Shown: positions 33,581 to 49,678, counted from the first letter of the stretch. The stretch is DNA of 64,000 nucleotides from Terriglobia bacterium (GCA_020072585.1 JAIQGL010000006.1:101808-165807); one strand, 5' to 3'. Notes: generated from the letters alone by a model not told the origin. Made by a program: numbers and translations.

Positions 33581-34426
33581 TTACCCCGGCCACATCTCCA
33601 GCGCCGTCTTGCTGAGAATCTGCTCTTTCACCTGTTCCGGCAACTCCAGCGCCTTGAACTGCTCCAGGTTCTGCTCGATCGTCGGGATGCCGGGGCTGGG
33701 GAAGTCCGTGCCAAACAGCGTCTTGTGCGCGATCTCTTTCACGCGCGGGAAATACTTAAGTAGGATTTTGGGCGGGATGCCGCTGATGTCCAGGTGCACA
33801 TTCTTGTGCCGGCGCAGCAGAAAAAATGCGGTGTGCATCCAGATCGGCCGGCCACCGTGTGCCATCAGGATCTTCAGCTTGGGAAAATCCACCGCCACGT
33901 CGTCCAGATAAATCGGATCGCCGAACTTGTTGCGCGCCGCGGGGAAGATCGACGTTCCCGTATGGATCATCACCGGAATCCCGTTCGCTTCCGCCGCGCG
34001 ATAAATCGTTTCCAGCTCCTTCACACCGTTCAGGTAGTCATTGGCGTAAAGCAACTGATGTGGCGGATGGATCTTGATCAGCCGTATGCCCAGGCGCACC
34101 AGGTTGTCCATTTCCGCCTGTACGTTGAGCGAATGCCGCGGATGCACGCTGCCGCAGGAAAGCAGGCGCTTTGGGTTTTCCTTGCAGTAATCCGCCACCC
34201 ACTGGTTCACCTCATGCGTAAACCCCATGGTCTCCGGCGCGACATAATTAATCAGGACCGCGCGCTCCACGCCGATGGAATCCAGATACTTGAGCAGCGC
34301 CTTAGGCGACCGGCAGTACTCCAGGATGTCTTCATAATGGCCGCGCGCCTTCTTCATCACCTCAAGCGGTCCGGCCTTGAACATGTCGACGGGTTGTATA
34401 TGGATGTGGCAGTCAGTAATTTGCAT
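33581..34426 (-). CDS. Amidohydrolase_2 (ACMSD/LigI-type metal-dependent hydrolase/decarboxylase) family protein
   Basis: N-terminal DCHIHI metal motif. Internal HPPH, IHTG and MAHGG segments are typical of the PF04909-type TIM barrel. Confidence 0.75.
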   Translation of the reverse strand: MQITDCHIHIQPVDMFKAGPLEVMKKARGHYEDILEYCRSPKALLKYLDSIGVERAVLINYVAPETMGFTHEVNQWVADYCKENPKRLLSCGSVHPRHSLNVQAEMDNLVRLGIRLIKIHPPHQLLYANDYLNGVKELETIYRAAEANGIPVMIHTGTSIFPAARNKFGDPIYLDDVAVDFPKLKILMAHGGRPIWMHTAFFLLRRHKNVHLDISGIPPKILLKYFPRVKEIAHKTLFGTDFPSPGIPTIEQNLEQFKALELPEQVKEQILSKTALEMWPG

Positions 34427-34434
34427 TTGTTTTT

Positions 34435-34582
34435 TATCCCGAACGAAGTGAGGGAACCCTATTGCTACTTGGCTTTCAAAAGCGTCACGAGGATTTATTT
34501 ATGCTCGGACAAAATGTCTTAGTTTGCGGCTAACACATTCTTCATTGCGGTAGGGCTCCCCTCGCTACGCTCGGGATAAAAC
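34435..34582. repeat. Family-1 inverted-repeat element (both arms)
   Basis: Left arm TATCCCGAACGAAGTGAGGGAACCCTATTGC. Right arm GTAGGGCTCCCCTCGCTACGCTCGGGATAAAAC. Confidence 0.85.
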
Positions 34583-35554
34583 ACACGCCAGCACCGCTCG
34601 CTTCGCGTACACCTTCACAATCTCCCGCCGATACTCCGGTGTAAGCCCTGAGGTCGTCAGCGGTTTCGCCATCTTGGCTGCCAGCTCGCCCACCACCGCC
34701 GCAACATGCTCGTCAATCTGCTTGCCCACCAGCGCATTGTCCGCGCCTTTAACCAGCAGCGGCGCGGGATTCACGGCCGTAATCGCCACGCGGGCGTTTT
34801 CCACCGGGCCGCCGTTTTTCTTGAGCGCCACCGCCACGCCGGCCAGCGGGTAATCAATCGATCCTCGTATGCGCAGCTTCATGTAGCTTCCCTTCCAGCC
34901 GGCGGATTCTTCCGGCAGAAAGACCCGGGTGAGCATTTCATTCGGCTCCAGCTTCATGCGTACATCGCCCACGTTGGTATAAAAATCCTTCATCGCCACG
35001 CGCCGTAACCCGCTCGGCCCCACAATCTCAACCTCTGCGCCCAGGCAAAGCAACGCCGGCGGCGTGTCACCGGAGAAAGCCGCCCAGCAGAACTTGCCTC
35101 CCGGCGCCACATGGCAGAGATCGCCGTCTTTCTTGATGCAGAAACCGCACGACCGTCGCCACTGCAATGACTGGTTGTACCAGACACAGCGCGTATCCAG
35201 GCATATGTTGCCGCCCAGCGTCCCCATGTTGCGCAGGATGGGCGAGGCCACCGTCATGGCCGCTTCATGCAACACGCGATAGTTGCGCCGTATGAACTCC
35301 GAATCTTCAATCGCTGAAAGCGGCGTGAGCGCGCCAATCTCCATGCCCGCGCCCGGACGTACGTGGATTCCGCGGATTTCTTCAATCCCGCGGATGTCCA
35401 TCAGGTACGCGGGCGTAAACAGCTTCTGCTTCATCGAAGGCAGAAGATCAGTGCCGCCGGCCAGGACCATCAGATCGCTGCCGTGCCGGGCGAGGTAGTC
35501 CGCCGCCTGCCGCAGTGTGCGCGGACGCAAGAACTTGAATGTAGGAAGACTCAT
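34565..35554 (-). CDS. Xanthine-dehydrogenase-family FAD-binding subunit with extra Cys-rich FeS loop (HcrB-like)
   Basis: VLAGGTDLLPSMK FAD motif. Insertion NICLDTRCVWYNQSLQWRRSCGFCIKKDGDLCHVAPGGKFCW has six Cys. Confidence 0.85.
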   Translation of the reverse strand: MSLPTFKFLRPRTLRQAADYLARHGSDLMVLAGGTDLLPSMKQKLFTPAYLMDIRGIEEIRGIHVRPGAGMEIGALTPLSAIEDSEFIRRNYRVLHEAAMTVASPILRNMGTLGGNICLDTRCVWYNQSLQWRRSCGFCIKKDGDLCHVAPGGKFCWAAFSGDTPPALLCLGAEVEIVGPSGLRRVAMKDFYTNVGDVRMKLEPNEMLTRVFLPEESAGWKGSYMKLRIRGSIDYPLAGVAVALKKNGGPVENARVAITAVNPAPLLVKGADNALVGKQIDEHVAAVVGELAAKMAKPLTTSGLTPEYRREIVKVYAKRAVLACVLSRA

Positions 35555-35556
35555 AT

Positions 35557-35722
35557 GTTCCGAAGTCCCGAAGCGTAGCGAGGGATCCCTATTCCTATCG
35601 ATGCCTTATTGGTTCTCAAATTGTCCCCTAGTTTTGCCAGTGCTTCCAAATTCGCGCATTCCAACCCCTAAAGTTTCTCGTGACGATAGGGTTCCCTCGC
35701 TCCGCTCGGGATTTCAGAAAAC
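35557..35722. repeat. Family-1 inverted-repeat element (both arms)
   Basis: Left arm GTTCCGAAGTCCCGAAGCGTAGCGAGGGATCCCTATTCC. Right arm GATAGGGTTCCCTCGCTCCGCTCGGGATTTCAGAAAAC. The arms match at about 28 of 33 positions by eye. Confidence 0.9.
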
Positions 35723-35742
35723 TCCGCGTCTCCGCGGTGAAT

Positions 35743-38331
35743 TCATCCTTCGTTTTGTGTCGCCCGCCTCGATGGATCATCCGCATGTCTCTGCGGTCCC
35801 TTGCCCTTAAACCACAATGACCCGCCGTGCTCACGGAACGTCGTCGGCGCGGAAGGATCGCTGCCTCGCGTCATCTCCAGCGATTTCTTTTCGCCATGTT
35901 TCGCTTTGAGCGCCGCCAGCACGCGCTCCGGCGTAAACGGAGATTCCCGCATCCGCACTCCCACTGCGTCATAAATCGCGTTAGCGATCGCCGGGATCGT
36001 CGCCGCCAGTGAGCCTTCACTCGCCTCTTTCGCGCCGAACGGCCCTTCCGGGTCCACCGACTCAACAATGATGCATTCCACTTCTGGCGACTCCGTGGCC
36101 GAAGGCGATTTGTACTCCAGCATTCCCGGATTCATCAGCAAGCCGTCTTTCCACACCATCTCTTCTTGCAGCGCCTGGCCCATCCCCATCCACACTGAGC
36201 CAATCACCTGGCCTTCCACGGAAACCGGGTTCAGCGCCCGCCCGCAATCGTGCGCCGCCCAAACTTTGTGGACTTTCACCTCGCCGGTCTCCTCGTCGAC
36301 GCTGACTTCTGCCACCTGCGCCGAATACGAATACGCCGGTGACGGCCCCACGCCCGCGCCTTTGAACGCTCCGCCGCGCGCATCTTTGGGTGGTGCGTAG
36401 GATCCCGTTCCCGTAAGTGCGCCGGTGAAGTCGATCGCCGAGACCACCGCCTCTTCAAAGCTCATACTGTCCTTGGGGCCTTCTTCTTTGCGCTTCTGCT
36501 GCAACGATCCACGCAGCGTCTGCCCTTCCACCCGTCCGGAGACCTCTTTCACGTTGCCGCCTGGCGGATCGGCTTTTGTCGCATGCTCCGCGCCCGCGCC
36601 GTTGGTTGCCGGCGATGCTGTACCCCGCTTCCACACGCTGTCATCGCGCATCATCACGTCTTCCGGCGCACAGTTCATCTTGATCGCTGCCGCGGCAACA
36701 ATCTTCTTTTTCACGTCCTGCGCTGAGCGCAGTGACGCGTTGCCGTTCATAAAGGTCACGCGGCTGGAGTAGGAGCCAATATCGATCGGGGTCAGGTCCG
36801 TGTCGGCGGCAATTACCCGGATACGCCCCATCGTGATGCCTAGCACCTCGGCCACAATCTGCGCCACCATCGTGTCCGATCCCTGGCCAATGTCTGACGC
36901 GCCGGTATACACCACCACGCCACCATCGCGGTCAATCTTGATGTTCACTGTGGAATGCGGCATGTCTGAACGAATAATGCTGTTCGCCGCGCCGCTCACA
37001 TAATGACTGCACGCCATGCCCATGCCGCGCGCCGGCGGAAGCTTGCTGCGTCGCTCGCGCCATCCTGAACGTCTCACAACTTGGTCAATGCATTCCGGCA
37101 AGCCATAACTCTGCACCCGCAGGTTGTTCACCGTAATACACGGCGGCTTCAGCAGATTGATCCGCCGAATCTCTGCCGGATCAATGTCCAGTTTCGCCGC
37201 AATCTCATCCAGTTGCGATTCAAACGCAAACCGCACATTCACCGTGCCGTGACCGCGCATCGCGCCGCACGCCGGCTTGTTCGTCAGCACGCGATAGCCG
37301 TCATAACGAATATTCGGAATGTCATACAGCGCGCCCAGCAGCGCGCCAGAATAAAGGATCGTCACCACGCCGTAAGAACAATATGCGCCGCCATCCTGAA
37401 TCACCTTCGCCGCAACGGAAGTCAGATGGCCGTCTTTCTTCGCGCCGATCTTCATATCAATAATCGTGCGCGGACGCCCGCGATGCGCCCAGAAAACTTC
37501 TTCCCGCGTATAGGTGATCTTCACCGGCGCTTCGGCTTTGCGCGCCGCCACCGCGGCAATAATCTCCAGCGGAATCACTTCGCTCTTGCCGCCAAACCCG
37601 CCGCCCACCAGCGGCTTGATCACGCGTATCTGCTGCATCGGCATCTCCAGCACAATGGAGAGCTTGTGCTGCAGATAGTAAGGCACCTGGGTGGACGACC
37701 ACACCGTCAGCCGCCCCGGCTGGCCGCTCTGCGAATCAATCTCAAATGAAGCCAGAGTGCAGTGTGGCTCCATCGCCGCATGCGTTACCTCGCCGGCAAT
37801 GTAGCGATGCTCCATCACCACATCGGCTTCGGCAAAACCTTTGTCCGGATCTCCAAAAACATGGTGGTAGTCTTTCTCAATATTGTTGGGCCGCTGCGGA
37901 TGGATCCAGTCTTTTTCCGCCTTCATCGAGTCTTCCGGATCGAACCACGCCGGCAGTTGCTCATACTCAACGTCAATCAACTCCAGCGCACGCTCGGCAA
38001 TCGACTCTGACGTGGCCACCACGCAGGCAACGTTGTCGCCCACGTAACGGACTTTCTCCACTGCCAGCGCCGTTTCGTCATGCCCGACAGGCAGAATGCC
38101 GTACTTGTTCGGCGCGTCCGGACCGGTCACCACGCAGACCACGCCCTCCATCGCTTCGGCCTTGGAGGTATCAATCTTCTTGATCCGCGCATGCGGATAC
38201 GGTGAATGTAGGATTTTGCCTGTCAGCATCCCCGGCAGTGACAAGTCGTCAGCATACTTGCCCTGGCCGGTAGTCTTGCCCGCCGAGTCAACGAGGGCAA
38301 CGCGTTTCCCGATGATAGAGAATTCAGACAT
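35743..38331 (-). CDS. Xanthine-dehydrogenase-family molybdopterin-binding large subunit (HcrA-like)
   Basis: GGGFGGK motif, aldehyde-oxidase/XDH a/b hammerhead and Moco domains. 862 aa, including a ~50 aa low-complexity insertion and a ~50 aa C-terminal tail. Confidence 0.9.
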   Translation of the reverse strand: MSEFSIIGKRVALVDSAGKTTGQGKYADDLSLPGMLTGKILHSPYPHARIKKIDTSKAEAMEGVVCVVTGPDAPNKYGILPVGHDETALAVEKVRYVGDNVACVVATSESIAERALELIDVEYEQLPAWFDPEDSMKAEKDWIHPQRPNNIEKDYHHVFGDPDKGFAEADVVMEHRYIAGEVTHAAMEPHCTLASFEIDSQSGQPGRLTVWSSTQVPYYLQHKLSIVLEMPMQQIRVIKPLVGGGFGGKSEVIPLEIIAAVAARKAEAPVKITYTREEVFWAHRGRPRTIIDMKIGAKKDGHLTSVAAKVIQDGGAYCSYGVVTILYSGALLGALYDIPNIRYDGYRVLTNKPACGAMRGHGTVNVRFAFESQLDEIAAKLDIDPAEIRRINLLKPPCITVNNLRVQSYGLPECIDQVVRRSGWRERRSKLPPARGMGMACSHYVSGAANSIIRSDMPHSTVNIKIDRDGGVVVYTGASDIGQGSDTMVAQIVAEVLGITMGRIRVIAADTDLTPIDIGSYSSRVTFMNGNASLRSAQDVKKKIVAAAAIKMNCAPEDVMMRDDSVWKRGTASPATNGAGAEHATKADPPGGNVKEVSGRVEGQTLRGSLQQKRKEEGPKDSMSFEEAVVSAIDFTGALTGTGSYAPPKDARGGAFKGAGVGPSPAYSYSAQVAEVSVDEETGEVKVHKVWAAHDCGRALNPVSVEGQVIGSVWMGMGQALQEEMVWKDGLLMNPGMLEYKSPSATESPEVECIIVESVDPEGPFGAKEASEGSLAATIPAIANAIYDAVGVRMRESPFTPERVLAALKAKHGEKKSLEMTRGSDPSAPTTFREHGGSLWFKGKGPQRHADDPSRRATQNEG

Positions 38332-38383
38332 TTTTCCGAAGTCCCGAACGCGCGGTTTTTGCGCGTGAGGGATCCCTATTCCC
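38332..38383. repeat. Family-1 solo left arm with expanded central hairpin
   Basis: TTTTCCGAAGTCCCGAACGCGCGGTTTTTGCGCGTGAGGGATCCCTATTCCC. No matching right arm lies before the next gene. Confidence 0.8.
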
Positions 38384-38495: not shown

Positions 38496-38515
38496 GGTTT
38501 TCCGATCACGCGCGA

Positions 38516-39019: not shown

Positions 39020-39131
39020 CAGATACCAAAAAACTGTTCGGCGTCAGCCTGTTCCCAATATTCGAACGGACGTTCGTTAATGCCGATACAAGAATACACG
39101 CTCGCCCCTTGTTCTTGCCACTCAGGGTTTG

Positions 39132-39207: not shown

Positions 39208-40137
39208 TCAGTACCCAAAGTCCGTCTTCTCCGCATAAGCATGCCGTTTCACGCCCAACTCTTCCACTCTCGCCACGCCTAGCTGCTTCGCGTACTCATT
39301 GCGATCAGCCACGCCGTTCACCCAGCGCTGTACCCAGGCATTGAAATCACCCTGGGTCTTGGTTTCCGCGTGGTACTGCTGGAAGAAGGCATCGTCGCGC
39401 TTGTTATAGCCTTGCACCGGTGAAGGATGCGCGCCCAGCGGGCACTCCACTACCGCTGTCACCAGAAAACCGGGAATCACTGTCCGGTTCGGATCGCTCG
39501 CAATCACATCTTCATCCACAATCTCTTCCGCGCACACGATTACTTTTTTCGCCGCGCGCACTCCCTCCAGCATCACGCCGAAGTTTCCCCAGCAATGCGC
39601 ATTGCCATGCTTGTCCGCCCGTTGTAAATGAACAACGGTCACGTCCGGCACAAGCGCGCGCACGGCCAGCAGCGTCTCTTTTGGCTCAAACGGAGAGATG
39701 ATCTGGTAGAAAAAATGATTTCCCTTGGGTACATCGCTGCCCATGGCGGTCCGCGTCGGCAGGAATGTCACGCCCATGGCGCCCGCCTGCAACGCCAGCG
39801 CCAGCGTAAAGTTGGTCATATCAAAGACGCGCAGCTTCTCGCCCGGAGTGCCTGGATTCTCAACCTCGGTGGCGTGGCGAAAGTTGTACGCCGAGCCCAT
39901 CATCACGTTGCCTACCCACGCCGCTACCACGTCTTTCACGCATCCGGCGCCAATGAGCTGGTCAAACAGAATGTCGGAGATCGGGCCAATCAGCCGCAGC
40001 TCTTTCTTTTTCTGGCGGATAATCTCATGCCCCGCGGCAAACGGAATCATCTGCTCCATCTGCAGGCCAAGCGCAACACTCGAGCCGTCAGAAACGTGCT
40101 CTGCGACCGCCTGCCGCATTGTCAGAACCTTAGACAC
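39208..40137 (-). CDS. Family I CoA-transferase subunit A (glutaconate CoA-transferase GctA-like)
   Basis: 309 aa. N-terminal MSKVLTMRQAVAEHVSDGSSVAL and overall glutaconate-type alpha-subunit pattern. Confidence 0.75.
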   Translation of the reverse strand: MSKVLTMRQAVAEHVSDGSSVALGLQMEQMIPFAAGHEIIRQKKKELRLIGPISDILFDQLIGAGCVKDVVAAWVGNVMMGSAYNFRHATEVENPGTPGEKLRVFDMTNFTLALALQAGAMGVTFLPTRTAMGSDVPKGNHFFYQIISPFEPKETLLAVRALVPDVTVVHLQRADKHGNAHCWGNFGVMLEGVRAAKKVIVCAEEIVDEDVIASDPNRTVIPGFLVTAVVECPLGAHPSPVQGYNKRDDAFFQQYHAETKTQGDFNAWVQRWVNGVADRNEYAKQLGVARVEELGVKRHAYAEKTDFGY

Positions 40138-40361: not shown

Positions 40362-41513
40362 ATGAAACGTCTTCGCCTGGCTCTCCTGATTGTCGCCGCG
40401 ATCCTCCTTGTGGTCTTTTTCCTTGTTCCGTCCATTGTTGAAAGCCGGGTGAACAAGGTGCTGAAATCGCCACACTCCCAGCCTTCCGCTGGGGCAGAAG
40501 AGCTGCACAAAAGGCTCATCGTCGCCGACCTCCATGCCGACAGCCTGCTCTGGAGCCGCAACCTGCTCAAGCAATCCAGCCGTGGCCATGTTGACCTGCC
40601 TCGCCTCGCCGATGGCAACGTTTCCATCCAGGCATTTACGGTGGTCACTACCGCACCGCGCAAGCTCAACATTTATCGGAACTCTGACTCGACGGACCTG
40701 ATCCGCTATATCGCGATGTTTGAAGGCTGGCCGCCACCCACATGGAGCAGCCCCAGGCAGCGCGCGCTATATCAGGCGGCGCGGCTCCACAAATTCGCGG
40801 CTGATTCCAAAGGCATGCTGGTCATAATCCAATCGAGCATGCAGTTGGAGAATTTTCTGGCCACCCGCCAGCCCGGCCAGGTTGCCGGGTTCCTGGGCTC
40901 CGAAGGTGCACAGCCTCTTGAAAGCAATCTGGCCAATCTCGACGAACTCTACTCCGCCGGCTTCCGCATGATGGCCCCCACCCACTTCACTGACACCGCA
41001 GTCGCTGGCTCGGCGGCAGGCATGAGCAAGGCTGGTCTTACCGCGCTCGGCCGCGATTGGGTGCATGCGATGGAGGACCATCACATGCTGATTGATCTGG
41101 CGCACGCTTCTCCCGCTACGCTGCGCGACGTCACCGCAATGGCCACGCGTCCGCTGATCGTCTCGCACACGGGCGTGAAGGGCACATGCAACAACCCGCG
41201 CAACCTCTCAGACGATGAGTTGCGCGCGGTCGCCAGCACTGGCGGAGTCGTCGGCATTGGTCTCTGGGACACCGCGACCTGCGGCACAGACGCTCGCGCC
41301 ACGGCCCGCGCCATCCGCTATGCCGTCAACGTCATTGGTGTTAATCACGTAGCGCTCGGCTCCGACTTCGACGGCGGCATCACGGCTCCGTTCGACTCGA
41401 GCGGCTGGGCCCTGCTCACTGACGCATTGCTCAAAGAAGGCTTCTCCGAACAGGACATTCACAAGATCATGGGTGAAAACGTGGTGCGGGTGCTGCTGGA
41501 AGTGTTCCCCTAA
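40362..41513 (+). CDS. Membrane-anchored M19 (renal-type) dipeptidase
   Basis: N-terminal TM helix. DLHADSLLW, HFTDT, DLAHAS, VSHTGV and ALGSDFDG metal-ligand motifs. Confidence 0.85.
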   Translation: MKRLRLALLIVAAILLVVFFLVPSIVESRVNKVLKSPHSQPSAGAEELHKRLIVADLHADSLLWSRNLLKQSSRGHVDLPRLADGNVSIQAFTVVTTAPRKLNIYRNSDSTDLIRYIAMFEGWPPPTWSSPRQRALYQAARLHKFAADSKGMLVIIQSSMQLENFLATRQPGQVAGFLGSEGAQPLESNLANLDELYSAGFRMMAPTHFTDTAVAGSAAGMSKAGLTALGRDWVHAMEDHHMLIDLAHASPATLRDVTAMATRPLIVSHTGVKGTCNNPRNLSDDELRAVASTGGVVGIGLWDTATCGTDARATARAIRYAVNVIGVNHVALGSDFDGGITAPFDSSGWALLTDALLKEGFSEQDIHKIMGENVVRVLLEVFP

Positions 41514-41716
41514 CATCCCGAGCGGAGCGAGGGAACCCTACGGCCAGAAGGATCTCTCCTGCCGCCGTGGCGCGATTTAGGTGGGAAATAGGCTGGAAGG
41601 GCTTTGCGTTGCCTTATTAGAAGACGGTAGTATTTTCTAAATCGTCATAGCCAACAGTCTGGAAAACAGTAGGGCTCCCTCACCGCAAAATCAGCGGTTC
41701 GGGATTTCAGAGAAAC
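41513..41716. repeat. Family-1 inverted-repeat element (both arms; right arm with expanded hairpin)
   Basis: Left arm ACATCCCGAGCGGAGCGAGGGAACCCTACGG. Right arm AGTAGGGCTCCCTCACCGCAAAATCAGCGGTTCGGGATTTCAGAGAAAC. Confidence 0.85.
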
Positions 41717-42508
41717 TCATTTTCCCCTCCACACCGGCTTTCTCTTTTCCATCCACGCCGCGATCCCCTCTTGCGCGTCCTCCGTCTGCATCAACTCTTC
41801 CAGATAAATCTTTTCCGCGCGCGCCAGCCCCTTGTCCAGATGCATTGAGTCCCACGCATAGAACGCTTTCTTGGCCACCGCCAGCGCCGCCGGGCTTAGC
41901 TTCAACAGGTGATCGACTGTCCGCTGAATCGCCTCCTGCAACTCGCCTTCAGGATGCGCTTCATTCGCCAATCCCAATGCCGCAGCCTCTTCCCCGCTGA
42001 ATGTGCGTCCGGTAAAGACCAACTCGGCAGCCCGTTTCTGCCCCACCAGCGCGGCCAGGGCCGTGCACGCCACCGGCGGATAACATCCCAGCGTGATTTC
42101 GGGAAATCCCCACTTGGCTTTTTCGGTGGTGTACGCCATATCGCATATCATGGCCAGCTCCGCCCCGCCGCCCAAACAAACGCCATGGACCTCGGCAATC
42201 GTTATCTTAGGGAACTTCACCAGCGCGCCGATCACGCCGTGAAATTTCTGCAACATGATCTGGATCTTGTCCGGCGTGTGCACCGCCACATCTACCCCGG
42301 CAGAAAAGCCGCGCTCGCCCCCACACAGAATCACGACAGAGATTTCTTTTCGCTGCTCCACTTCGCGCAACGCCGCCAGCAACTCGTCCATCATCTGGAT
42401 GTCGATGACGTTAAGAGGTGGATTGGTCAATGTGATGCGGGCAAGTGGGCCATGCGCTTCGACGGCAATGCGCTTCGGCGATGTGGCGGAGACCGGTGAT
42501 AACGCCAT
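41717..42508 (-). CDS. Enoyl-CoA hydratase/isomerase (crotonase) family protein
   Basis: ITLTNPPLNVID...FSAGVDV...GGGAELAMICD crotonase motifs. The start is set at the internal ATG 42508; the upstream extension has no homology-like character. Confidence 0.85.
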   Translation of the reverse strand: MALSPVSATSPKRIAVEAHGPLARITLTNPPLNVIDIQMMDELLAALREVEQRKEISVVILCGGERGFSAGVDVAVHTPDKIQIMLQKFHGVIGALVKFPKITIAEVHGVCLGGGAELAMICDMAYTTEKAKWGFPEITLGCYPPVACTALAALVGQKRAAELVFTGRTFSGEEAAALGLANEAHPEGELQEAIQRTVDHLLKLSPAALAVAKKAFYAWDSMHLDKGLARAEKIYLEELMQTEDAQEGIAAWMEKRKPVWRGK

Positions 42509-42769: not shown

Positions 42770-43192
42770 ATGAGAAACAAGATTTTTGCCGCGACGTTGA
42801 GATGTACGGGAGCGCTTTTGCTCCTTTTTTTCCTGGCCGGCTGCGGCAGCAGCAACAACAACGCCTTGAATCCACAGTTTCAGCCGCAGGTCGCCAACGT
42901 GCCGGATACGTTCCAGTTCCAGTCAACTGGTGTAACCGGCGTCACGCAGAACCTGCACTATGGCTGGCAGACCAGCGGCACGGCAGCCAGCATTAACCAG
43001 GCGTCGACGCTTACGGCGGGCACAGCCACCGTCACCATCTCTGATGCGAACGGGAAAGCCGTGTATACCGGCAATCTGAGCTCGAACGGGACCTTCACGT
43101 CGGCGGCGGGAGTAGGACCAGGGCTCTGGTCCATTGATGTCGCCCTCAACGGTTACAGTGGCACGCTCAATTTTCGCGTCCAGAAGATGTAA
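42770..43192 (+). CDS. Small lipoprotein, unknown function
   Basis: Lipobox LLFFLAGCGSS. Ser/Thr/Gly/Asn-rich beta-type sequence. Confidence 0.55.
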   Translation: MRNKIFAATLRCTGALLLLFFLAGCGSSNNNALNPQFQPQVANVPDTFQFQSTGVTGVTQNLHYGWQTSGTAASINQASTLTAGTATVTISDANGKAVYTGNLSSNGTFTSAAGVGPGLWSIDVALNGYSGTLNFRVQKM

Positions 43193-43357: not shown

Positions 43358-44110
43358 TCAACTCGTCCAGAACCCCTTGGTATCGTACTCCCGGATCGCC
43401 TTCAGCTCCGCCGCATTTGGTTCCGGTGTCGGCTTTACCTCGTCGGCGACTTTCAGCTTCCACCCGGTATTCGCCAGAACATCGTCGACGATCACGCCCG
43501 GATGCACTGTTGCCAGAAAAGCTTCGCCATCTTCCCCAAAGCGCAGCACGCATTTGGTGGTAATCACCGCCGAGGGTCCTCCGCGCGGCAGCCCCACGCG
43601 CTTCCTCCATCCCGCACCTTCCCCGTTTCCCGGACTGGTAATGTAGCTCACTTTTTCCGGCAGCCGGTGTTTGCCATGCTCCAGCAGCGAGACAAAGCGC
43701 TGCGCCATGGACGCAATATCGCATGCGCCGCCCGAGCCGGGCAGCCGCACCATGCCATTTTTGCCCTGGACCTTGGTGGAATTCAGGTTGCCGTATTTGT
43801 CTACCTCGGCGGCGCCCAGAAAGCCCAGGCTCACCCGCCCCGATTGCAGGAGGCTCATTACCTCCAGCATGCCCAGGCACTGCGTCGCGCCTTTGATGTT
43901 CGGCGGATCGGCCATTGTGTAGATAAGCTCCGGCGAGGGCGTGGATCGGATCACGCCATTTTCAAACAGGCCGATTGCATTCGGCGCGTGCGTCTTCTTT
44001 GCAACAACAAAAGCAATCAGCGGCAGCCGCATGCCGACAAAGACGACTTCGCCGTCTTTGATCTCGCGCGCCGCAGCCACCACCATGAGTTCGTTGAGTG
44101 TGTATTGCAT
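43358..44110 (-). CDS. Family I CoA-transferase subunit B (GctB-like)
   Basis: GLFENG segment carries the catalytic-Glu (S/F)ENG motif. 250 aa. Confidence 0.8.
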   Translation of the reverse strand: MQYTLNELMVVAAAREIKDGEVVFVGMRLPLIAFVVAKKTHAPNAIGLFENGVIRSTPSPELIYTMADPPNIKGATQCLGMLEVMSLLQSGRVSLGFLGAAEVDKYGNLNSTKVQGKNGMVRLPGSGGACDIASMAQRFVSLLEHGKHRLPEKVSYITSPGNGEGAGWRKRVGLPRGGPSAVITTKCVLRFGEDGEAFLATVHPGVIVDDVLANTGWKLKVADEVKPTPEPNAAELKAIREYDTKGFWTS

Positions 44111-44119: not shown

Positions 44120-44306
44120 TTCTGCAATCCCGAATCCCGCGCGAGCTTTTTCCGCAGTCCCGAGCCTGAGCGAAGCGAACGGGAGGGATCCCTATTCCCC
44201 CGAGAATCATTTGGGAAACCAATCATAGCAAGAGTTACAAAAAGATTGAGGGAACCTCAGAGGCACTAAAGCCCATAGGGTTCCCTCGCTACGCTCGGGA
44301 TGTAAC
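44120..44306. repeat. Family-1 inverted-repeat element (composite left arm, right arm)
   Basis: Left ...TTTTTCCGCAGTCCCGAGCCTGAGCGAAGCGAACGGGAGGGATCCCTATTCCC. Right CCATAGGGTTCCCTCGCTACGCTCGGGATGTAAC. Confidence 0.85.
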
Positions 44307-44311
44307 AAAAC

Positions 44312-45493
44312 CTACTGCACCGCGTTCAGCGCGCTCTTCCTCACCTCGCCGATCGTCAACAGCGGATCTTTCGCGCCGGTCTTGGGCGCGATCCATTTCT
44401 TTTCTGACCCGATAATGTCCATCAGCAGCTTCTTGTCCGCGGCTGTCGGCAGCCAGCTTTCAATCTGCTGCTTGTATTCCTTTTCTTCCATCGGCTGGCC
44501 TGTCTGCGGATGGAACATCTGGCCTTTCCAGCGGCCAATCATGCGGTTGAACTGGATGTTGGGACAGTAGAGCTCTGTGCTGCCCGGGCGCTGCCCGGCG
44601 CTGATTCGCTTTACCAAACCCACGCACTCGTCGCGATAAAGATGGCGGTTGTAATCGTTTAAGTTATCCAGGTCCGGCGCTGTTTCATTCTTCAACTCGT
44701 CGTAGCGGCCCTTGAGTCCCCAGGTGTAAGCCCAGTGCGCAGACGACGAGTGGTCGGTGCCAAACAGATCATAGGCGCTCGAGATCCACTTGTTCAGATA
44801 CTTCTGCATCAGCCAGCCGGGGACCACGCCGGCTTCGGCGATGCGCGCCAGTCCGGTGTTGCCCGTGCCCATGTGGAAGGCCTCTTCACGCAGCATGTAG
44901 CTCATCGACCGGCCCAGCGGCGCAAAGGCCGAGTACTTCAGCATCTGTAGCTGGAACTTGCCGTCGCGGTCTACAAAGTCAGTGAAGGCAAAAAAGTCCA
45001 GCCAGTTGTCGCACTCTTCATTGAACGATCCCAGCAGCCGCTTGTTCTCATAGGCCTTGCGCTCCAGCATCTTCTGCGCTTCCACTTTTCCGGTGGTGCC
45101 GAAATGGTCAATCAGCAGGGCGCACATCTGCCAGCCGTGGCGCATCTCCTCGATCATCACCCGCGTGAGCGACGAGCGATCGTAGTCACTGGGCGCGGTC
45201 TCAAACAGGTAGCGCTGCTGCTCCACGCTGGCGAACTCAGTATCGCCCTGGTAGACGATCAGATTCATCAAAGCATCGCGCATGTTCTGCGTGGGGATCT
45301 GGCGGACATTCTCCCACTTATTGCGCCCCTTGTAATAGCCGAAGGAGATTTCATCCGTCTCAATCGCGCCGTACAGCGTATCGAACTTAAAATTGCGTAT
45401 ATCGTCGTGATTGACGCCGATTTCCTCGCGCCAGCCCTTGAACAGCCCTTCCCAATCACTAAACGACCCGATCTTCATTATTTTCCCCGGCAT
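44312..45493 (-). CDS. BoxB-type diiron oxygenase (benzoyl-CoA 2,3-epoxidase-like), short form
   Basis: QGDTEFASVEQQRYL, EEMRHGW (ExxH), FVDRDGKFQLQML, LREEAFH (ExxH) and GLKGRYDE match my recollection of Azoarcus BoxB. 393 aa against ~470 for the canonical protein. Confidence 0.75.
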   Translation of the reverse strand: MPGKIMKIGSFSDWEGLFKGWREEIGVNHDDIRNFKFDTLYGAIETDEISFGYYKGRNKWENVRQIPTQNMRDALMNLIVYQGDTEFASVEQQRYLFETAPSDYDRSSLTRVMIEEMRHGWQMCALLIDHFGTTGKVEAQKMLERKAYENKRLLGSFNEECDNWLDFFAFTDFVDRDGKFQLQMLKYSAFAPLGRSMSYMLREEAFHMGTGNTGLARIAEAGVVPGWLMQKYLNKWISSAYDLFGTDHSSSAHWAYTWGLKGRYDELKNETAPDLDNLNDYNRHLYRDECVGLVKRISAGQRPGSTELYCPNIQFNRMIGRWKGQMFHPQTGQPMEEKEYKQQIESWLPTAADKKLLMDIIGSEKKWIAPKTGAKDPLLTIGEVRKSALNAVQ

Positions 45494-45542
45494 TGGTAGC
45501 TCCTCTTAATGTCTTCGATTAACGTCTCGGTACCTGGCGCGC

Positions 45543-46001
45543 TCAGCGATATCCCATCTCTGGGACGAGCTTGGTCTTGCTCTTTACAAACATCCCGCTT
45601 CCGCGCGCGATCTCTTCGTTTTGATCGTTGTACAGAACTGACTCCGCCAGAAACGATGATCCGCCGCCCCGTACAACTTTTCCCAGGGAACGGACCATGC
45701 CTCCTGACACCGGGGCCAGCAGGTACAGGTTGAAAGTGCTGGTCAACACAAAGTTGTCTTCCACAAGAGAGCTGACGGCAAAAAAAGCCGCATCATCCAG
45801 GCTCTTGAAATAGACAGACCCATGCGCGGCCTGCGCCGCATGGAAGAAGCGGCGGTCCACACTGACCTTGATCTCCGCCGTTCCCCGGCCTATCTGGATC
45901 GCCGGCTTAAAGAACTCATTGATCGGCGCAGCCAGGTACATCCGCTCCAGCTTGCGATAGTGCTCTTCGTTCTCTGCAACTGCCAGTCGGCTCGTAGCCA
46001 T
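45543..46001 (-). CDS. PaaI/hotdog-fold acyl-CoA thioesterase
   Basis: ~150 aa hotdog pattern (GTAEIKVSV...HGSVYFKSLDDAAFFA...). The ATG at 46001 overlaps the ALDH stop (TAATG). Confidence 0.65.
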   Translation of the reverse strand: MATSRLAVAENEEHYRKLERMYLAAPINEFFKPAIQIGRGTAEIKVSVDRRFFHAAQAAHGSVYFKSLDDAAFFAVSSLVEDNFVLTSTFNLYLLAPVSGGMVRSLGKVVRGGGSSFLAESVLYNDQNEEIARGSGMFVKSKTKLVPEMGYR

Positions 46002-47467
46002 TACAAGTTCATCCAAACGCTCTTCAGTTCTGTGTAATGTTCAATCGCGTGCATGCCCAGCTCGCGTCCAAAGCCTGACTGTTTGTAGCCGCCAAAGGGC
46101 AACGCTGCGTCCATTACGCCGTACGTATTGATCCACACCGTTCCCGCCTTCAACCGGCGCGAGAGCTGGTGGGCTTTCTTGATGTCATTGGTCCAGACCG
46201 CCGCGGCCAGGCCGTAGACATTTTTGTTGGCAAGTTCCGCCACCTGCTCAATATCGTCAAACGTGAGCGTGGCCAGCACCGGGCCAAAGATTTCTTCCTG
46301 GGCGATCTTCATATCGTTGTTCACGCAGCCAAAAATCGTCGGCTCAATGAAGTAACCATGATCGCCGTTGACCTGCGCGCGCTTGCCGCCGGCCAGCAGC
46401 TTTGCGCCTTCGTTCTTCCCTGCCTCGATATATCCCAGCACCGTCTGCATCTGCTTTTCGCTTACCACGGCGCCCAGCCGGGTCTTGGGATCAAGCGGGT
46501 CGCCCAGCCTGATTTTTTTCGATGACTCCACCAGCTTGGTTACGAACTCGTCTTCCGCTTTTTTCTCGATGAACAGGCGCGAACCGGCACAGCACACCTC
46601 GCCTTTGCCATAAAAGATGCCGTTGAGCGCGCCCTTGACGGCCGAATCCATTTGCGAATCGGCAAAAACAATGTTCGGCGATTTGCCGCCCAGCTCCAGA
46701 GTCACGCGTTTGAGCGTCTCGGCAGAGCTGCGCATGATCTCTTTACCCACTGAGGTTGAGCCCGTGAACGCAATCTTGTCCACGCCCGGATGCTTCACCA
46801 GCGCGGCGCCCGTCTCCGGTCCGCCGGTAACAATGTTCAGCACTCCGGCCGGCAGTCCGGCTTCCAGAGCCAGTTCGCCAAAGCGCAATGCGCTCAAAGG
46901 CGTCTGCTCCGCGGGCTTCAAAATGACAGTGTTGCCGCAGGCCAGCGCAGGCCCCAGCTTCCAGCTCGCCAGCAGAAGAGGAAAGTTCCACGCAACAATC
47001 GCACCCACCACGCCCACAGGCTCGCGCAGAGTATAGGTAAAAGCGTTGCTGAAGCTGTTGACGGTCTCGCCGTGGATCTTCGTGGCCCATCCGGCGAAGT
47101 AACGGAATACGTCCGCCACCATCGGCATGTCCACGTAGCGCGACTCAAAGATCGGCTTGCCGTTGTTCAATGTCTCCAGCTCGGCCAGCTCTTCAATGTT
47201 TTTGTCGATCAGGTCAGCGATGCGCCACAAAACTTTGCCACGCTCACTGGCGGACATCTTGCGCCACGGGCCGTTGACGTCGTCAAACGCCTTGCGCGCC
47301 GCCGCCACTGCCTGATCAACGCCGGTGGCGCCGCCTTCAGCGACTTGCGTGAGCACCTCGCCGGTTGCGGGATTGAAGGTATCGAACGTCTTTCCCGACC
47401 CCTCCGACCATTTCCCGTCGATGAGTAATTTACCGGGTACGACTTTTGCTTTGCTTGCTGCGATCAT
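46001..47467 (-). CDS. NAD(P)-dependent aldehyde dehydrogenase
   Basis: ELGGKSP and catalytic-Cys GEVCCAGSR motifs. 488 aa. Confidence 0.9.
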   Translation of the reverse strand: MIAASKAKVVPGKLLIDGKWSEGSGKTFDTFNPATGEVLTQVAEGGATGVDQAVAAARKAFDDVNGPWRKMSASERGKVLWRIADLIDKNIEELAELETLNNGKPIFESRYVDMPMVADVFRYFAGWATKIHGETVNSFSNAFTYTLREPVGVVGAIVAWNFPLLLASWKLGPALACGNTVILKPAEQTPLSALRFGELALEAGLPAGVLNIVTGGPETGAALVKHPGVDKIAFTGSTSVGKEIMRSSAETLKRVTLELGGKSPNIVFADSQMDSAVKGALNGIFYGKGEVCCAGSRLFIEKKAEDEFVTKLVESSKKIRLGDPLDPKTRLGAVVSEKQMQTVLGYIEAGKNEGAKLLAGGKRAQVNGDHGYFIEPTIFGCVNNDMKIAQEEIFGPVLATLTFDDIEQVAELANKNVYGLAAAVWTNDIKKAHQLSRRLKAGTVWINTYGVMDAALPFGGYKQSGFGRELGMHAIEHYTELKSVWMNL

Positions 47468-47587
47468 GATTTTTCAGCCTTTGGCTCTTAGCTTTTAGTT
47501 CCTGGTTGTCCATGTGGCACAGGCACTCTTGCCTGCAACCACTTGTCCATTGGCAAATCTCTTATGTCAATACAACAATCAACCCTT

Positions 47588-47810
47588 GTCATCCTGAGCA
47601 CTTGCCCCGAAGGAACGTAGCGACTGAAGGCGAGTCGAAGGATCCCGATGCTTCATCCCTGAACATGCCAATTCGGGGAGTTCTTCCCAGAATCTGGGTG
47701 AGAACGCCTTGATGCGACCTGGTTGCCCAATTCACCTTGGGATCCTTCGGCTTCGCGCCAATCGTCATTTATTCAACAACCATTCCCAGACGCGCTCCGC
47801 TCAGAATGAC
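47588..47810. repeat. Family-2 inverted-repeat element (GTCATCCTGAGC...GAAGGATCCC / GGGATCCTTCG...GCTCAGAATGAC)
   Basis: The outer (GTCATCCTGAGC vs GCTCAGAATGAC) and inner (CGAAGGATCCC vs GGGATCCTTCG) segments are mutually complementary. Confidence 0.7.
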
Positions 47811-47831
47811 AGTTCTGAAACAGTTTCCTCG

Positions 47832-47873
47832 CCATAGGGCTCCCTCGCTCCGTCCGGGATTTCAGAAAAAGCC
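47832..47873. repeat. Family-1 solo right arm
   Basis: CCATAGGGCTCCCTCGCTCCGTCCGGGATTTCAGAAAAAGCC, ending 1 nt before the crotonase stop codon. Confidence 0.8.
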
Positions 47874-48683
47874 CTACTTCGCCTTAAATGTTGCCGGCCT
47901 CTTGTCCACATACGCTGCCAGACCTTCCTTGGCATCATCGCTGGCAAAGAGCCGCTGTTGCAGTTCGCGCTCTACCGCCAGGGCTGACTCCATCGGAATC
48001 TCCCAGCCGGTCTGTACGGACCGCTTGATGTTGCCTACCGCCTTGGCGGCCTTGTTTGGCGGAGTGAACTGGCGCGCGTACTCCATGATGTTCTCCATGA
48101 AGTTGTCACGCTCATAAATGTCGTTGACGATGCCCATCTCCTTCGCTTCTTCAAAAGTGAAGGTGTTGCCGGTGACCATCAGCTCAATGGCTTTGCTCTT
48201 GCCCACCATGCGGCTCAAACGCTGTGTGCCGCCCGTGCCCGGCAGCACGCCAAGATTGATCTCAGGCAATCCAATTTTGCCGGCATCGCGGCGGGCAATG
48301 CGGATGTCGGCCGCCATGGCGATTTCCAGTCCGCCGCCCACGCAGTGCCCGTTGATCGCGGCGATCACCAGCTTGGGTGTGTGCTCCAGGCGCAGCAGCA
48401 TCTCATTTGCATGCAGACAGAAGTAATATTTGAAAGTCGGATCGACGCTGGAGAGCATCTTGATGTTGGCGCCGGCAGAAAAGAACTTGTCTCCCGCTCC
48501 GGTCAGCAGCAGAACATACACATCATTGTCCATGCGCGCTTTCAGGATGCACTCATCCAGCTGTCGGTTCATCTCGTAGGTATAAGTGTTCGCCGGCGGA
48601 TCGCACAGTTCAATAACGGCTATGCCGTCTTCAACGCGATAATTGACCAGAGTTTTGGTTTCCGTTGCTGTGGTTGTAGCCAT
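47874..48683 (-). CDS. Enoyl-CoA hydratase/isomerase (crotonase) family protein
   Basis: FFSAGANI...GHCVGGGLEIAMAADIRIA crotonase motifs. 269 aa. Confidence 0.85.
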   Translation of the reverse strand: MATTTATETKTLVNYRVEDGIAVIELCDPPANTYTYEMNRQLDECILKARMDNDVYVLLLTGAGDKFFSAGANIKMLSSVDPTFKYYFCLHANEMLLRLEHTPKLVIAAINGHCVGGGLEIAMAADIRIARRDAGKIGLPEINLGVLPGTGGTQRLSRMVGKSKAIELMVTGNTFTFEEAKEMGIVNDIYERDNFMENIMEYARQFTPPNKAAKAVGNIKRSVQTGWEIPMESALAVERELQQRLFASDDAKEGLAAYVDKRPATFKAK

Positions 48684-48735
48684 GGTTCAAAAGCTCCTTA
48701 TGAATTTCTGGAATCTAATCTTTTGCGTGCCGCCG

Positions 48736-49449
48736 TCAGGCGTTCGCCTTGGAATTTTTGCGTTTGGGTCTTCCGGGGTTCAATACGCCGCGCAGGAACA
48801 AATCGCTCATCTCCTCGGCAAGTTCTCCGGCATTCAGGTCCACCCGCGGGTTATGCCAGGTGTAAATCCAGTTGATCATCCCGAACAAGCCTAGCACTGC
48901 CATCCGTCCTGAAAATTGTAGTCCTTTTTCCCGCCGCAAATCTTCCAGCAGCTCCAGGCAAATGCGGTAGTATTCACGCTTGATCGCCCTGATCTCTGCC
49001 CCGCGGCCATTCTTCAGCGTGTCGTCTTCATGAGTAAGCACTTTCATGGCTTCCTTGTTTGCCAGAAAATACTCCAGATGGTTTTCAATGAAGATGCGGA
49101 CGCGCTGCTCCGCGCCTTTCGCGTCCTTGAGCCGCTCCTGCAGGCGTTCGATGATCGTCTCAAATGTGTGCTTCTGGATCAGGTAAAGCAGGTCTTCCTT
49201 GGAATCAAAATAATGGTACAAGCCGGCAAGAGACATGCCAGCGGCGCGGGAAAGGTCGCGCATGGAAGCGCCTTCATAGCCCTTTTCGCAGAAGATGCGC
49301 GCGGCATGGTACAGCAGCTTGGCCAGCCTGCGGTCAAAGCGGGAATCCACAACTTCCTCACCGCCTTTTTCCGCAGAAAGCACGGGACGCCCTTTACGTC
49401 CGCTGTAGGGTTCGCCAGGCAGCCGGGTTTCAAGATTTGTCGTAGCCAT
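48736..49449 (-). CDS. TetR-family transcriptional regulator
   Basis: HTH AARIFCEKGYEGASMRDLSRAAGMSLAGLYHYFDSKEDLL. The start is set at ATG 49449. Confidence 0.85.
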   Translation of the reverse strand: MATTNLETRLPGEPYSGRKGRPVLSAEKGGEEVVDSRFDRRLAKLLYHAARIFCEKGYEGASMRDLSRAAGMSLAGLYHYFDSKEDLLYLIQKHTFETIIERLQERLKDAKGAEQRVRIFIENHLEYFLANKEAMKVLTHEDDTLKNGRGAEIRAIKREYYRICLELLEDLRREKGLQFSGRMAVLGLFGMINWIYTWHNPRVDLNAGELAEEMSDLFLRGVLNPGRPKRKNSKANA

Positions 49450-49460
49450 TCGCAGATTTA

Positions 49461-49476
49461 TCGAACGTTCGTTCGA
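49461..49476. promoter_or_regulatory. Perfect palindrome TCGAACG-TT-CGTTCGA, candidate TetR operator
   Basis: The 16-bp dyad sits 12 nt upstream of the TetR ATG. It overlaps a second perfect 10-bp palindrome, CGAACGTTCG. Confidence 0.4.
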
Positions 49477-49678
49477 GTCATTATTATCGCCTGCGGGCTG
49501 CCGCAAGGTCAAATCTCGTCCCCCTCCCCAACCTGCTACCAAGAAAGCCACGCCTTGGGCATCTGAATTGCACACTTAAGGACATGTTCTTCAGTGGAAC
49601 TCCTGAGGCACGGAAAGACCAGGCTGGTAATCCGCTGAATTTACACACTTTAGAGCGCAGACCGGACAGGGCACCCGA

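Follow-up and report, generated by a model that had tools for sequence, protein, structure and literature searches.

What is the function of a gene cluster that encodes both a molybdenum enzyme related to those that dehydroxylate aromatic coenzyme A (CoA) thioesters and a diiron protein related to oxygenases that epoxidise them? The question is raised by a stretch of 64,000 nucleotides (64 kb) from a Terriglobia bacterium (GCA_020072585.1, JAIQGL010000006.1:101808–165807), referred to here as the window. Between positions 33581 and 49575 the minus strand of the window carries 12 open reading frames (ORFs), among them the three subunit genes of an enzyme resembling 4-hydroxybenzoyl-CoA reductase (Hcr) and a gene for an oxygenase resembling BoxB, the epoxidase of the Box pathway for benzoyl-CoA. 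A preliminary description of the window had listed these twelve genes, and ORF calls, Pfam and NCBIfam found all of them at the positions and in the order claimed, with every family confirmed.

The proposal made here is that the cluster encodes an aryl-CoA-inducible, Box-like epoxide pathway into which Hcr would feed 4-hydroxybenzoyl-CoA, and that the window holds one variant of a modular operon family of the Terriglobia. We give this reading an even chance. What the sequences themselves show are the family assignments, the metal ligands and cluster cysteines, the synteny among related loci and an operator common to the units, together with a lack of BoxA, BoxC and CoA ligase genes.

Gene content and transcription units

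Coordinates are window positions throughout, and families were called with Pfam and NCBIfam. In the direction of transcription of the minus strand, the features are:

49462–49475, minus strand: PaaR-type operator 1 (coding strand: CGAACGAACGTTCG), matching the consensus exactly
48736–49449, minus strand: tetR, with TetR_N and TetR_C_24 domains (Pfam); the ORF as listed extends to 49575
47874–48683, minus strand: crotonase ECH1 (Pfam, NCBIfam)
46001–47467, minus strand: NAD(P)-dependent aldehyde dehydrogenase (ALDH), accessory (Pfam, E 1e-183)
45543–46016, minus strand: hotdog-fold (4HBT/PaaI-like) thioesterase (Pfam, NCBIfam); public gene calls put its start at 46001
44312–45493, minus strand: predicted short BoxB-type diiron aryl-CoA oxygenase, 393 amino acids (aa), of the PaaA_PaaC family (Pfam); PDB structure 3PER, E 3e-56
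43358–44110, minus strand: family-I CoA-transferase beta subunit, GctB-like (CoA-transferase B; Pfam; 1POI_B, E 1e-37)
42770–43192, plus strand: lipoprotein-like ORF of 140 aa, no Pfam family, interrupting the set
41717–42508, minus strand: crotonase ECH2, a core gene; the ORF as listed extends to 42673
40362–41513, plus strand: M19 membrane dipeptidase (Pfam, E 1e-71), interrupting the set
39208–40137, minus strand: family-I CoA-transferase alpha subunit, GctA-like (CoA-transferase A; Pfam; 1POI_A, E 2e-39)
39063–39076, minus strand: PaaR-type operator 2, 44 nucleotides (nt) upstream of the hcrC start codon
38516–39019, minus strand: hcrC, gamma-type subunit with two [2Fe-2S] clusters (Pfam Fer2_2/Fer2)
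35743–38331, minus strand: hcrA, alpha-type molybdopterin subunit, three-domain, 862 aa (TIGR03194; 1RM6_A)
34565–35554, minus strand: hcrB, beta-type FAD subunit, FAD_binding_5/CO_deh_flav_C (1RM6_B, E 2e-67)
33581–34426, minus strand: Amidohydro_2 protein, a core gene and the last of the operon (Pfam, E 1e-36)

Comparison with orthologue lengths places the likely start of tetR at Met43 (49449; orthologues of 199–250 aa) and that of ECH2 at Met56 (42508; orthologues of 257–263 aa). The genes had been described as one minus-strand gene set, but the two plus-strand genes at 40362–41513 and 42770–43192 split it and make a single transcript impossible in the window. There are roughly three units: tetR to CoA-transferase B; ECH2 alone; and CoA-transferase A, hcrCAB and Amidohydro_2. 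Proteins of the window match those of metagenome contigs placed in Candidatus Angelobacter and Acidobacteriaceae (Terriglobia) with identities of 96–98%, and the Acidobacteriota origin supposed in the preliminary description is right.

The molybdenum enzyme

The subunits for the molybdenum cofactor, for FAD and for two [2Fe-2S] clusters are encoded by three adjacent genes in the order gamma-alpha-beta (Pfam). These are the same three subunits in the same gene order as HcrCAB of Thauera aromatica (1RM6/1SB3). HcrA scored 1010.2 bits against TIGR03194, the model for the alpha subunit of 4-hydroxybenzoyl-CoA reductase, which is above the curated equivalog cut-off of 994.55. In a PDB search it matched Thauera HcrA (1RM6_A) with 794 bits (E 3e-237), while the next-best structures – pseudooxynicotine dehydrogenase, CO dehydrogenases and quinoline oxidoreductase – scored at most 278 bits. 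Over 756 aligned residues, 51% are identical to the Thauera protein. HcrB matched 1RM6_B and has the extra loop of about 40 residues that is otherwise seen only in Hcr. Four cysteines of this loop (C123, C139, C147 and C156) align with the [4Fe-4S] ligands of the Thauera protein (C122, C138, C146 and C155), and they are invariant in all 31 orthologues compared. The earlier assignment of the molybdenum subunit as HcrA-like, rather than hydroxylase-like or CoxL-like, agrees with the structure scores, the TIGR03194 score and the retained [4Fe-4S] loop. By these sequence measures the enzyme is of the Hcr type, and it would dehydroxylate 4-hydroxybenzoyl-CoA to benzoyl-CoA with reduced ferredoxin.

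There are also differences from the Thauera enzyme. HcrA of the window is longer by an insertion of about 45 aa that is specific to the lineage (residues 571–615) and by about 50 aa at its C terminus (residues 813–862), and the beta and gamma subunits are below their equivalog cut-offs (scores are given with the weighing of the proposal). All HcrA orthologues in the Terriglobia carry an insertion of 30–73 residues, in which Gly, Ala, Lys and Glu are abundant, as well as a tail of 44–64 residues at the C terminus, neither of which is found in Thauera. The surroundings differ as well: the genes here share an operon family with an O2-dependent type of diiron oxygenase, not with anaerobic benzoyl-CoA genes, and there is no ferredoxin gene nearby.

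The short BoxB diiron protein

The best match of the diiron protein in the PDB is BoxB of Azoarcus evansii (3PER), while PaaA structures were matched only with E 7e-5 or worse (about 1e-4). The NCBIfam model for PaaA gave 37.6 bits against a cut-off of 280. Identity to canonical BoxB is 38% over 377 aa. The iron ligands of BoxB are Glu120, Glu150, His153, Asp211, Glu240 and His243, and the residues of its benzoyl pocket are taken from the same paper on its mechanism (PMC5489048). All six ligands are present in the short BoxB as E86, E116, H119, D175, E204 and H207; the preliminary description had supposed that they would be kept, and they are invariant in 80 orthologues and retained in distant short forms as well. 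Five residues of the benzoyl pocket (Gln116, Thr119, Ser123, Phe193 and Phe203 in BoxB numbering) are also conserved.

The protein has 393 aa compared to about 475 aa in canonical BoxB and lacks three BoxB segments, one N-terminal and two internal of about 19 and 23 residues. When 1.84 billion cluster representatives were searched exhaustively, no more than 129 clusters reached E≤1e-30, and many of these are fragments; the short forms of full length have 350–385 aa and 32–51% identity. From the number of clusters, the short length and the missing segments, the short BoxB proteins are, on sequence, a distinct and fairly narrow subfamily of 350–395 aa. One distant relative of 367 aa (P0197) has lost the diiron ligands, as in PaaC.

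Compared to the BoxAB/BoxC/BoxD system of Aromatoleum/Azoarcus evansii (3PER/3PM5), the predicted enzyme shares the diiron ferritin-like fold, the six ligands and most of the pocket residues, and crotonase-family enzymes and an ALDH are likewise encoded alongside. Apart from the shorter, divergent oxygenase, the difference lies in the partners: there is no BoxA, no two-domain BoxC, no benzoate-CoA ligase and no BoxR, and an Amidohydro_2 gene is invariably found instead.

Conservation and modularity of the operon family

Relatives were sought in one genome per species. There were 583 candidate stretches encoding a relative, and the best 80 of these (74–98% identity) are all from Terriglobia-type metagenome-assembled genomes. 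Presence was counted in the 60 Terriglobia loci with full flanks:

ECH1: 60 of 60 loci
TetR: 54 of 60 loci
ECH2: 54 of 60 loci
hcrC and hcrA: 38 of 60 loci each
hcrB: 35 of 60 loci
Amidohydro_2: at least 34 of 60 loci, some having been lost to the end of the locus
ALDH: 33 of 60 loci
CoA-transferase B: 27 of 60 loci
CoA-transferase A: 22 of 60 loci
Thioesterase: 3 of 60 loci, the closest relatives only

Gene order and strand are constant across the 60 loci. The Hcr genes, where present (38 loci), are between ECH2 and Amidohydro_2, and these loci span 74–98% identity in the BoxB-like protein. In one locus (L081) the cluster is a compact operon of 11 genes with overlapping stop and start codons. 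Two loci (L089 and L090) have a minimal operon of TetR, crotonase, short BoxB, crotonase and Amidohydro_2. L087, labelled Gemmatimonadaceae, and L091, which has the same layout, have the order TetR, crotonase, ALDH, thiolase, crotonase, short BoxB, a GDPD-family gene, 3-hydroxyacyl-CoA dehydrogenase, crotonase and Amidohydro_2. The thiolase and the 3-hydroxyacyl-CoA dehydrogenase of these Gemmatimonadota versions are what would be expected of a route of ring cleavage followed by beta-oxidation. The Amidohydro_2 gene is thus kept in both the minimal and the Gemmatimonadota forms.

Since the arrangement recurs in dozens of Terriglobia genomes, it is far beyond chance. The conserved core consists of TetR, two crotonases, the short BoxB and Amidohydro_2, and Hcr, the CoA-transferase and ALDH are accessory modules. 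The 'hybrid island' of the preliminary description was correct in that Hcr and BoxB-like genes do occur together, but the combination is only one variant of a broader family in which these three modules are optional.

Two further genes were seen beside the core in related loci. A gene for a single-domain rhodanese of about 107 aa, with the active site CHRGVRS, directly follows ECH2 and precedes hcrC or Amidohydro_2 in about 20 related loci (for example L052, 12149–12472, and L024, 14122–14463, as well as L036, L038, L063 and L071); it is absent from the cluster in the window. The GDPD-family gene (glycerophosphodiester phosphodiesterase fold) is directly 3' of the short BoxB gene in L087 (11232–11945) and L091 (11125–11868), and it is odd for an acyl-CoA pathway.

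A shared operator

The phenylacetyl-CoA-responsive TetR repressor PaaR of Thermus thermophilus has a 14-bp operator consensus, 5'-CNAACGNNCGTTNG-3' (PMC6651687). Two exact copies are found in the window, where 0.06 would be expected. Operator 1 is just downstream of a promoter-like site, TTGACC-18-GATAAT (49483–49512), and 13 nt before the ATG of tetR; promoter and terminator scans gave counts no higher than shuffled expectation and were used only to mark this site. An operator of this type is present at the start of tetR in all 65 related loci, including the Gemmatimonadota and minimal operons, with 46 exact copies and 19 with one mismatch. In total, 1.4 Mb of related loci contain 53 exact sites, of which 46 are at tetR and two are upstream of hcrC (L020 and L022).

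An operator upstream of hcrC is found where the operon is broken: in L020, in L022 and in the window. In the window it is at the point where the opposite-strand genes cut Hcr from the tetR promoter, and this argues that Hcr has stayed in the same regulon as the tetR unit. That the genes would be co-conserved and co-transcribed had been part of the earlier hypothesis; constant order and strand in 60 loci, with an operator at both tetR and hcrC, agree with the first half and with joint control, but there can be no single transcript in the window.

The nearest structures to the TetR protein are 5K7F (E 4e-21) and 3VPR (E 6e-21), and FadR of B. subtilis (3WHB) was also matched. The first two we take to be the acyl-CoA-binding regulators AibR and PfmR. 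The protein therefore resembles acyl-CoA-sensing regulators and, by its operator, is a putative PaaR-type repressor. The Paa pathway has more in common with the cluster than the operator at the regulator's own promoter: an oxygenase acting on a CoA ester, crotonases, an ALDH and a PaaI-type thioesterase, and, in the Gemmatimonadota, a thiolase and a 3-hydroxyacyl-CoA dehydrogenase. Unlike in that pathway, the oxygenase here is BoxB-like rather than PaaA-like, and Pfam found none of the partner genes PaaB, PaaC, PaaD and PaaE in the cluster. The chemistry of Hcr also requires a ring-conjugated thioester, which phenylacetyl-CoA does not have.

Proposed pathway

In the scheme that follows, the choice of substrates, the sequence of steps, the sources of electrons and what ECH1, ECH2, Amidohydro_2 and the transferase do are all inferred. 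An aroyl-CoA, probably benzoyl-CoA, would free the operator from the TetR repressor. In about two-thirds of the Terriglobia loci, the window included, Hcr would first strip the para-hydroxyl group, converting 4-hydroxybenzoyl-CoA to benzoyl-CoA with a low-potential ferredoxin encoded elsewhere, and phenolics of the 4-hydroxybenzoate type would thereby enter the epoxide route. Epoxidation of the ring of benzoyl-CoA or a close aroyl-CoA would be the task of the short BoxB, with O2 and with two electrons supplied by a donor that has no gene nearby. ECH1, ECH2 and Amidohydro_2 would jointly open the ring hydrolytically and cleave a C–C bond, in place of BoxC, and ALDH, where present, would oxidise a CoA-ester semialdehyde in the manner of BoxD. 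About 40% of loci have the glutaconate-type CoA-transferase, whose role is probably to form or recycle a CoA thioester without ATP. An order of CoA transfer, dehydroxylation, epoxidation and hydrolytic opening is plausible.

Of the crotonases, ECH1 is the most conserved gene of the cluster (86–98% identity across loci) and has its best structural match in 2PPY (E 4e-69), while ECH2 has an unusual loop, GCYPPVA, after the hydratase glutamates; neither is close to BoxC or PaaG. Amidohydro_2 has the metal-ligand pattern HxH ... H ... D. Its nearest structure is that of the uncharacterised protein BB4693, and profile matches to ACMSD, LigW and the C–C hydrolase LigY were very weak (PDB sequence and profile searches). 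On this evidence it may be a metal hydrolase, a decarboxylase or a C–C hydrolase, and no narrower assignment is possible.

A more far-reaching version can be put forward only tentatively, and we doubt that all of it will hold. The Terriglobia, and in reduced form the Gemmatimonadota and others, would have a self-contained 'short-Box' pathway of dearomatisation in which a BoxA-independent diiron epoxidase, two crotonases and Amidohydro_2, as a C–C or ring hydrolase, replace BoxABC. In most Terriglobia one repressor would wire this pathway to a ferredoxin-dependent Hcr. The reductive and the O2-dependent steps would share a low-potential electron pool in the same cell at the same time, and 4-hydroxybenzoate-type phenolics from lignin and peat would be mineralised in microoxic soil.

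Evidence against the proposal

A number of observations weigh against the pathway proposed above. Three of the subunits on which it depends are below their equivalog cut-offs: the short BoxB scored 244.3 bits against TIGR03225 (cut-off 499.1; BoxB is still the best model), HcrB scored 319.9 against TIGR03195 (cut-off 404.55; HcrB is still the best family), and HcrC scored 174.8 against TIGR03193 (cut-off 257.8), in a tie with the gamma subunit of glyceraldehyde dehydrogenase. Hcr is missing from one-third of the Terriglobia loci and from all non-Terriglobia loci examined (L086–L088, L091 and L092), so it is not needed for the core function. In three of the latter (L086, L088 and L092), an intact short BoxB gene stands alone, without crotonase, Amidohydro_2 or TetR neighbours. 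The Hcr of Thauera is oxygen-sensitive and needs reduced ferredoxin, a poor fit with an O2-dependent partner. The ALDH is generic, its best NCBIfam matches being betaine-aldehyde and phenylacetaldehyde dehydrogenases, all below cut-offs. The pair of TetR and ECH1 also resembles FadR/FadB-type fatty-acid genes of Bacillus.

The CoA-transferase is a further difficulty. It is closest to the glutaconate CoA-transferase GctAB of Acidaminococcus fermentans (1POI), also a two-subunit family-I transferase, and the catalytic Glu of the GctB motif 'ESG' aligns with the Glu of 'ENG' ('FENG') here. Unlike in GctAB, the two subunit genes are parted by ECH2 and, in the window, by the two foreign genes as well; the fold relatives of GctAB also include non-transferases at lower scores (5MZW/5N00 and 6CO6). 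The known substrates of glutaconate CoA-transferase are acids of three to five carbons (C3–C5), and activation of an aromatic acid by the related enzyme here is therefore a guess. It is equally possible that the transferase acts on an aromatic acid or on a dicarboxylate product.

Partner genes are also missing. BoxA, BoxC and benzoate-CoA ligase from the annotated box cluster of Mycetohabitans rhizoxinica were used as tblastn queries (E≤1e-3) against the window and 90 related loci. BoxA and the ligase had no match in either, and BoxC had only weak matches, of 35–40% over about 100–150 residues, to ECH1, in its crotonase domain. Among the remaining large ORFs of the window, Pfam detected no ligase, reductase or ferredoxin, and clustering of all ORFs from 84 loci gave no recurring gene for any of the three; the recurrent neighbours were housekeeping genes and the rhodanese only. 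Overall, no reductase, ferredoxin or CoA ligase was found within ±10 kb in the 90 loci or in the window. These results uphold the statement of the preliminary description that BoxA, an aryl-CoA ligase and a ferredoxin are lacking, and the 'orphan' label that it gave to BoxB holds for the 90 related loci too. It follows that neither the two supplies of electrons nor, in many loci, the activation of the acid is accounted for.

Alternative explanations

The architecture could be the same but the substituents different, with Hcr acting on some other aroyl-CoA with a para-hydroxyl group, such as protocatechuoyl-CoA or vanilloyl-CoA, and the short BoxB on a substituted benzoyl-CoA, for instance 3-hydroxy- or 3-methoxybenzoyl-CoA. 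Two changes in the BoxB pocket are in keeping with such substrates: Thr210 is replaced by Val or Ile in all 80 orthologues (Val in the window), and Phe206 by Tyr in 59 of the 80, though the window protein keeps Phe. The sub-cut-off scores of the short BoxB and of the Hcr beta and gamma subunits, and the lineage-specific insertions of HcrA, point the same way. However, the five pocket residues that hold the carbonyl group and the ring are unchanged, HcrA passes its equivalog cut-off, and no gene of the cluster points to demethylation or other handling of a substituent. Substituted rings are an unlikely explanation on this evidence.

The core could instead be non-aromatic: an alicyclic or aliphatic acyl-CoA would be the substrate that the diiron protein hydroxylates, desaturates or epoxidises in an operon of the beta-oxidation type, and Hcr would be a neighbour acquired for a separate purpose. 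The sequences of both crotonases have the ordinary hydratase Glu-Glu pair (GGGLE and LPEINLG in ECH1). The FadR/FadB-like TetR and ECH1 pair, the thiolase and 3-hydroxyacyl-CoA dehydrogenase of the Gemmatimonadota versions, the glutaconate-type transferase and the lack of any tblastn match to an aromatic-acid ligase in the window and 90 loci would all suit such an operon. It would not explain why the benzoyl pocket of BoxB is kept almost residue for residue, why the operator fits the consensus of the phenylacetyl-CoA repressor PaaR, why a second copy is directly upstream of hcrC, or why 38 of 60 loci have Hcr inside the operon, in the gap between ECH2 and Amidohydro_2. A non-aromatic core is quite unlikely.

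A pathway of the furoate type (Trudgill-like) was also considered. In this case the molybdenum enzyme would hydroxylate 2-furoyl-CoA or a similar compound, Amidohydro_2 would open the lactone, a crotonase would hydrolyse 2-oxoglutaryl-CoA as HmfE does, and the Gct-like transferase would use 2-oxoglutaryl-CoA as the CoA donor for fresh acid. The molybdenum enzyme, crotonase, hydrolase, ALDH and C5-dicarboxylate-type CoA-transferase do fit the published furoate route (PMC3223595), the transferase in particular being closest to glutaconate CoA-transferase. In HmfABCDE of Cupriavidus basilensis, too, a Mo/FAD/[2Fe-2S] enzyme with an aroyl-CoA substrate is found together with a member of the crotonase family and a hydrolytic step that opens the ring. 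HmfA, however, has 1015 aa (PMC8091172), and HcrA of the window is set apart from it by its length of 862 aa. The HcrA equivalog score, the 51% identity to Thauera HcrA and the beta-subunit [4Fe-4S] loop, which is that of a reductase with 'inverted electron flow', are all against a furoyl-CoA hydroxylase, as is the absence of a ligase. Relatives of HcrA are throughout named 4-hydroxybenzoyl-CoA reductase alpha by the Joint Genome Institute (JGI) and never furoyl-CoA dehydrogenase. Proteins of the xanthine dehydrogenase (XDH) family on PLSDB plasmids were all at most 37% identical to HcrA here (tblastn). A furoate route would also have no role for the BoxB-like oxygenase, and the core exists without the molybdenum enzyme. 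On this indirect evidence the explanation is very unlikely.

Two candidates examined in this connection were dropped. The best plasmid match of the molybdenum subunit, tried as a source of HmfA, belonged to an unrelated XDH-family cluster (tblastn). The ECH1 match 2PPY, which is GK1992 of Geobacillus kaustophilus, was followed as a lead to an HmfE homologue; the furan review lists this species among possible furfural degraders but gives no locus tags.

That Hcr and the BoxB-like operon are functionally unrelated neighbours is barely credible: the absence of Hcr from one-third of loci and the opposite-strand genes that part it from the boxB-like unit in the window would allow it, but the constant place of the Hcr genes after ECH2 and before Amidohydro_2, with order and strand kept, in 38 of 60 loci at 74–98% BoxB-like identity, the overlapping stop and start codons of the compact 11-gene operon, and the repetition of the tetR operator upstream of hcrC do not.

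Novelty and significance

Public pipelines already label genes of this kind 'benzoyl-CoA 2,3-epoxidase subunit B' and '4-hydroxybenzoyl-CoA reductase alpha'. No description of the combination of Hcr with a BoxB-like protein, of the short BoxB subfamily, of the absence of BoxA and BoxC, or of the shared operator was found in open-access papers or bioRxiv. The Terriglobia are among the most abundant bacteria of soil and peat, and 4-hydroxybenzoate-type phenolics are major products of the breakdown of lignin and Sphagnum.

If the proposed aryl-CoA epoxide pathway is correct, this would be the first case in which both gene linkage and regulation tie reductive dehydroxylation by Hcr to an oxygenase that forms an epoxide. 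Beside Box and Paa there would then be a third type of CoA-dependent epoxide pathway, one without BoxA or BoxC, and one would have to ask where a diiron epoxidase with no dedicated reductase gets its electrons. Metagenome surveys could then not use 'hcr' (anaerobic) and 'boxB' (aerobic) as independent markers. The cluster offers an experimental handle in the conserved 14-bp operator and its TetR repressor. The lead is well supported and experimentally tractable, and the chemistry is hypothetical.

Interrupting genes, repeats and surroundings

The M19 dipeptidase and lipoprotein genes interrupt what is a compact operon in relatives. The dipeptidase gene is found at the same position, on the opposite strand, in four Ca. 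Angelobacter loci (L001, L014, L015 and L023). The 140-aa lipoprotein ORF has no match in the other related loci and is called as a gene in public assemblies of the same organism; it is outside the pathway and unique to this genome lineage.

The cluster spacers of about 130–400 nt are due to copies of an element resembling repetitive extragenic palindromes or miniature inverted-repeat transposable elements (REP/MITE), which are found at:

34427–34587, 35566–35722, 38364–38383, 41510–41715, 44180–44311 and 47793–47870, no strand assigned: REP/MITE-like element copies in the cluster spacers

The element has inverted arms of about 27–30 nt (ATCCCGAGCGGAGCGAGGGAACCCTAT) and a core palindrome (TAGGGAWCCCTA), with about 90 nt of variable DNA between. 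There are 10 matches to the core in the window, nine of them inside the cluster, where 0.37 would be expected. Folding of the transcribed strand gives long hairpins (z = −7.3, −3.8 and −2.5), and an Rfam scan of the region found no match, the repeat included. The element is also present in the cluster spacers of other loci of the Ca. Angelobacter lineage. A role as the TetR operator was rejected, since the tetR promoter contains no copy, the hairpins are long and only this lineage has the element.

In many loci the cluster occupies a shared chromosomal slot between carAB-DHDPS and citrate synthase-iscS-mnmA. The slot in the window is a different one, with gcvT (Pfam) and apparent gcvH and gcvPA/PB genes (from ORF sizes and N-termini only) at 26897–31453 on the minus strand, just downstream of the cluster. 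Divergent from tetR, on the plus strand, are two paralogous DUF5666 lipoprotein-like genes of 480 and 467 aa (49679–51121 and 51505–52908), and the closest loci (L001, L007 and L009) have relatives with 75–78% identity at this position. A fragment of a methylmalonyl-CoA mutase gene is at the start of the window (91–1398, plus strand). It is followed at 1476–6432, also on the plus strand, by three adjacent genes, which may form a small oxidative gene set: one for a 390-aa protein that matches no Pfam family, one for a protein of 721 aa whose cytochrome c motif is RoxA-like, and one for a cytochrome P450.

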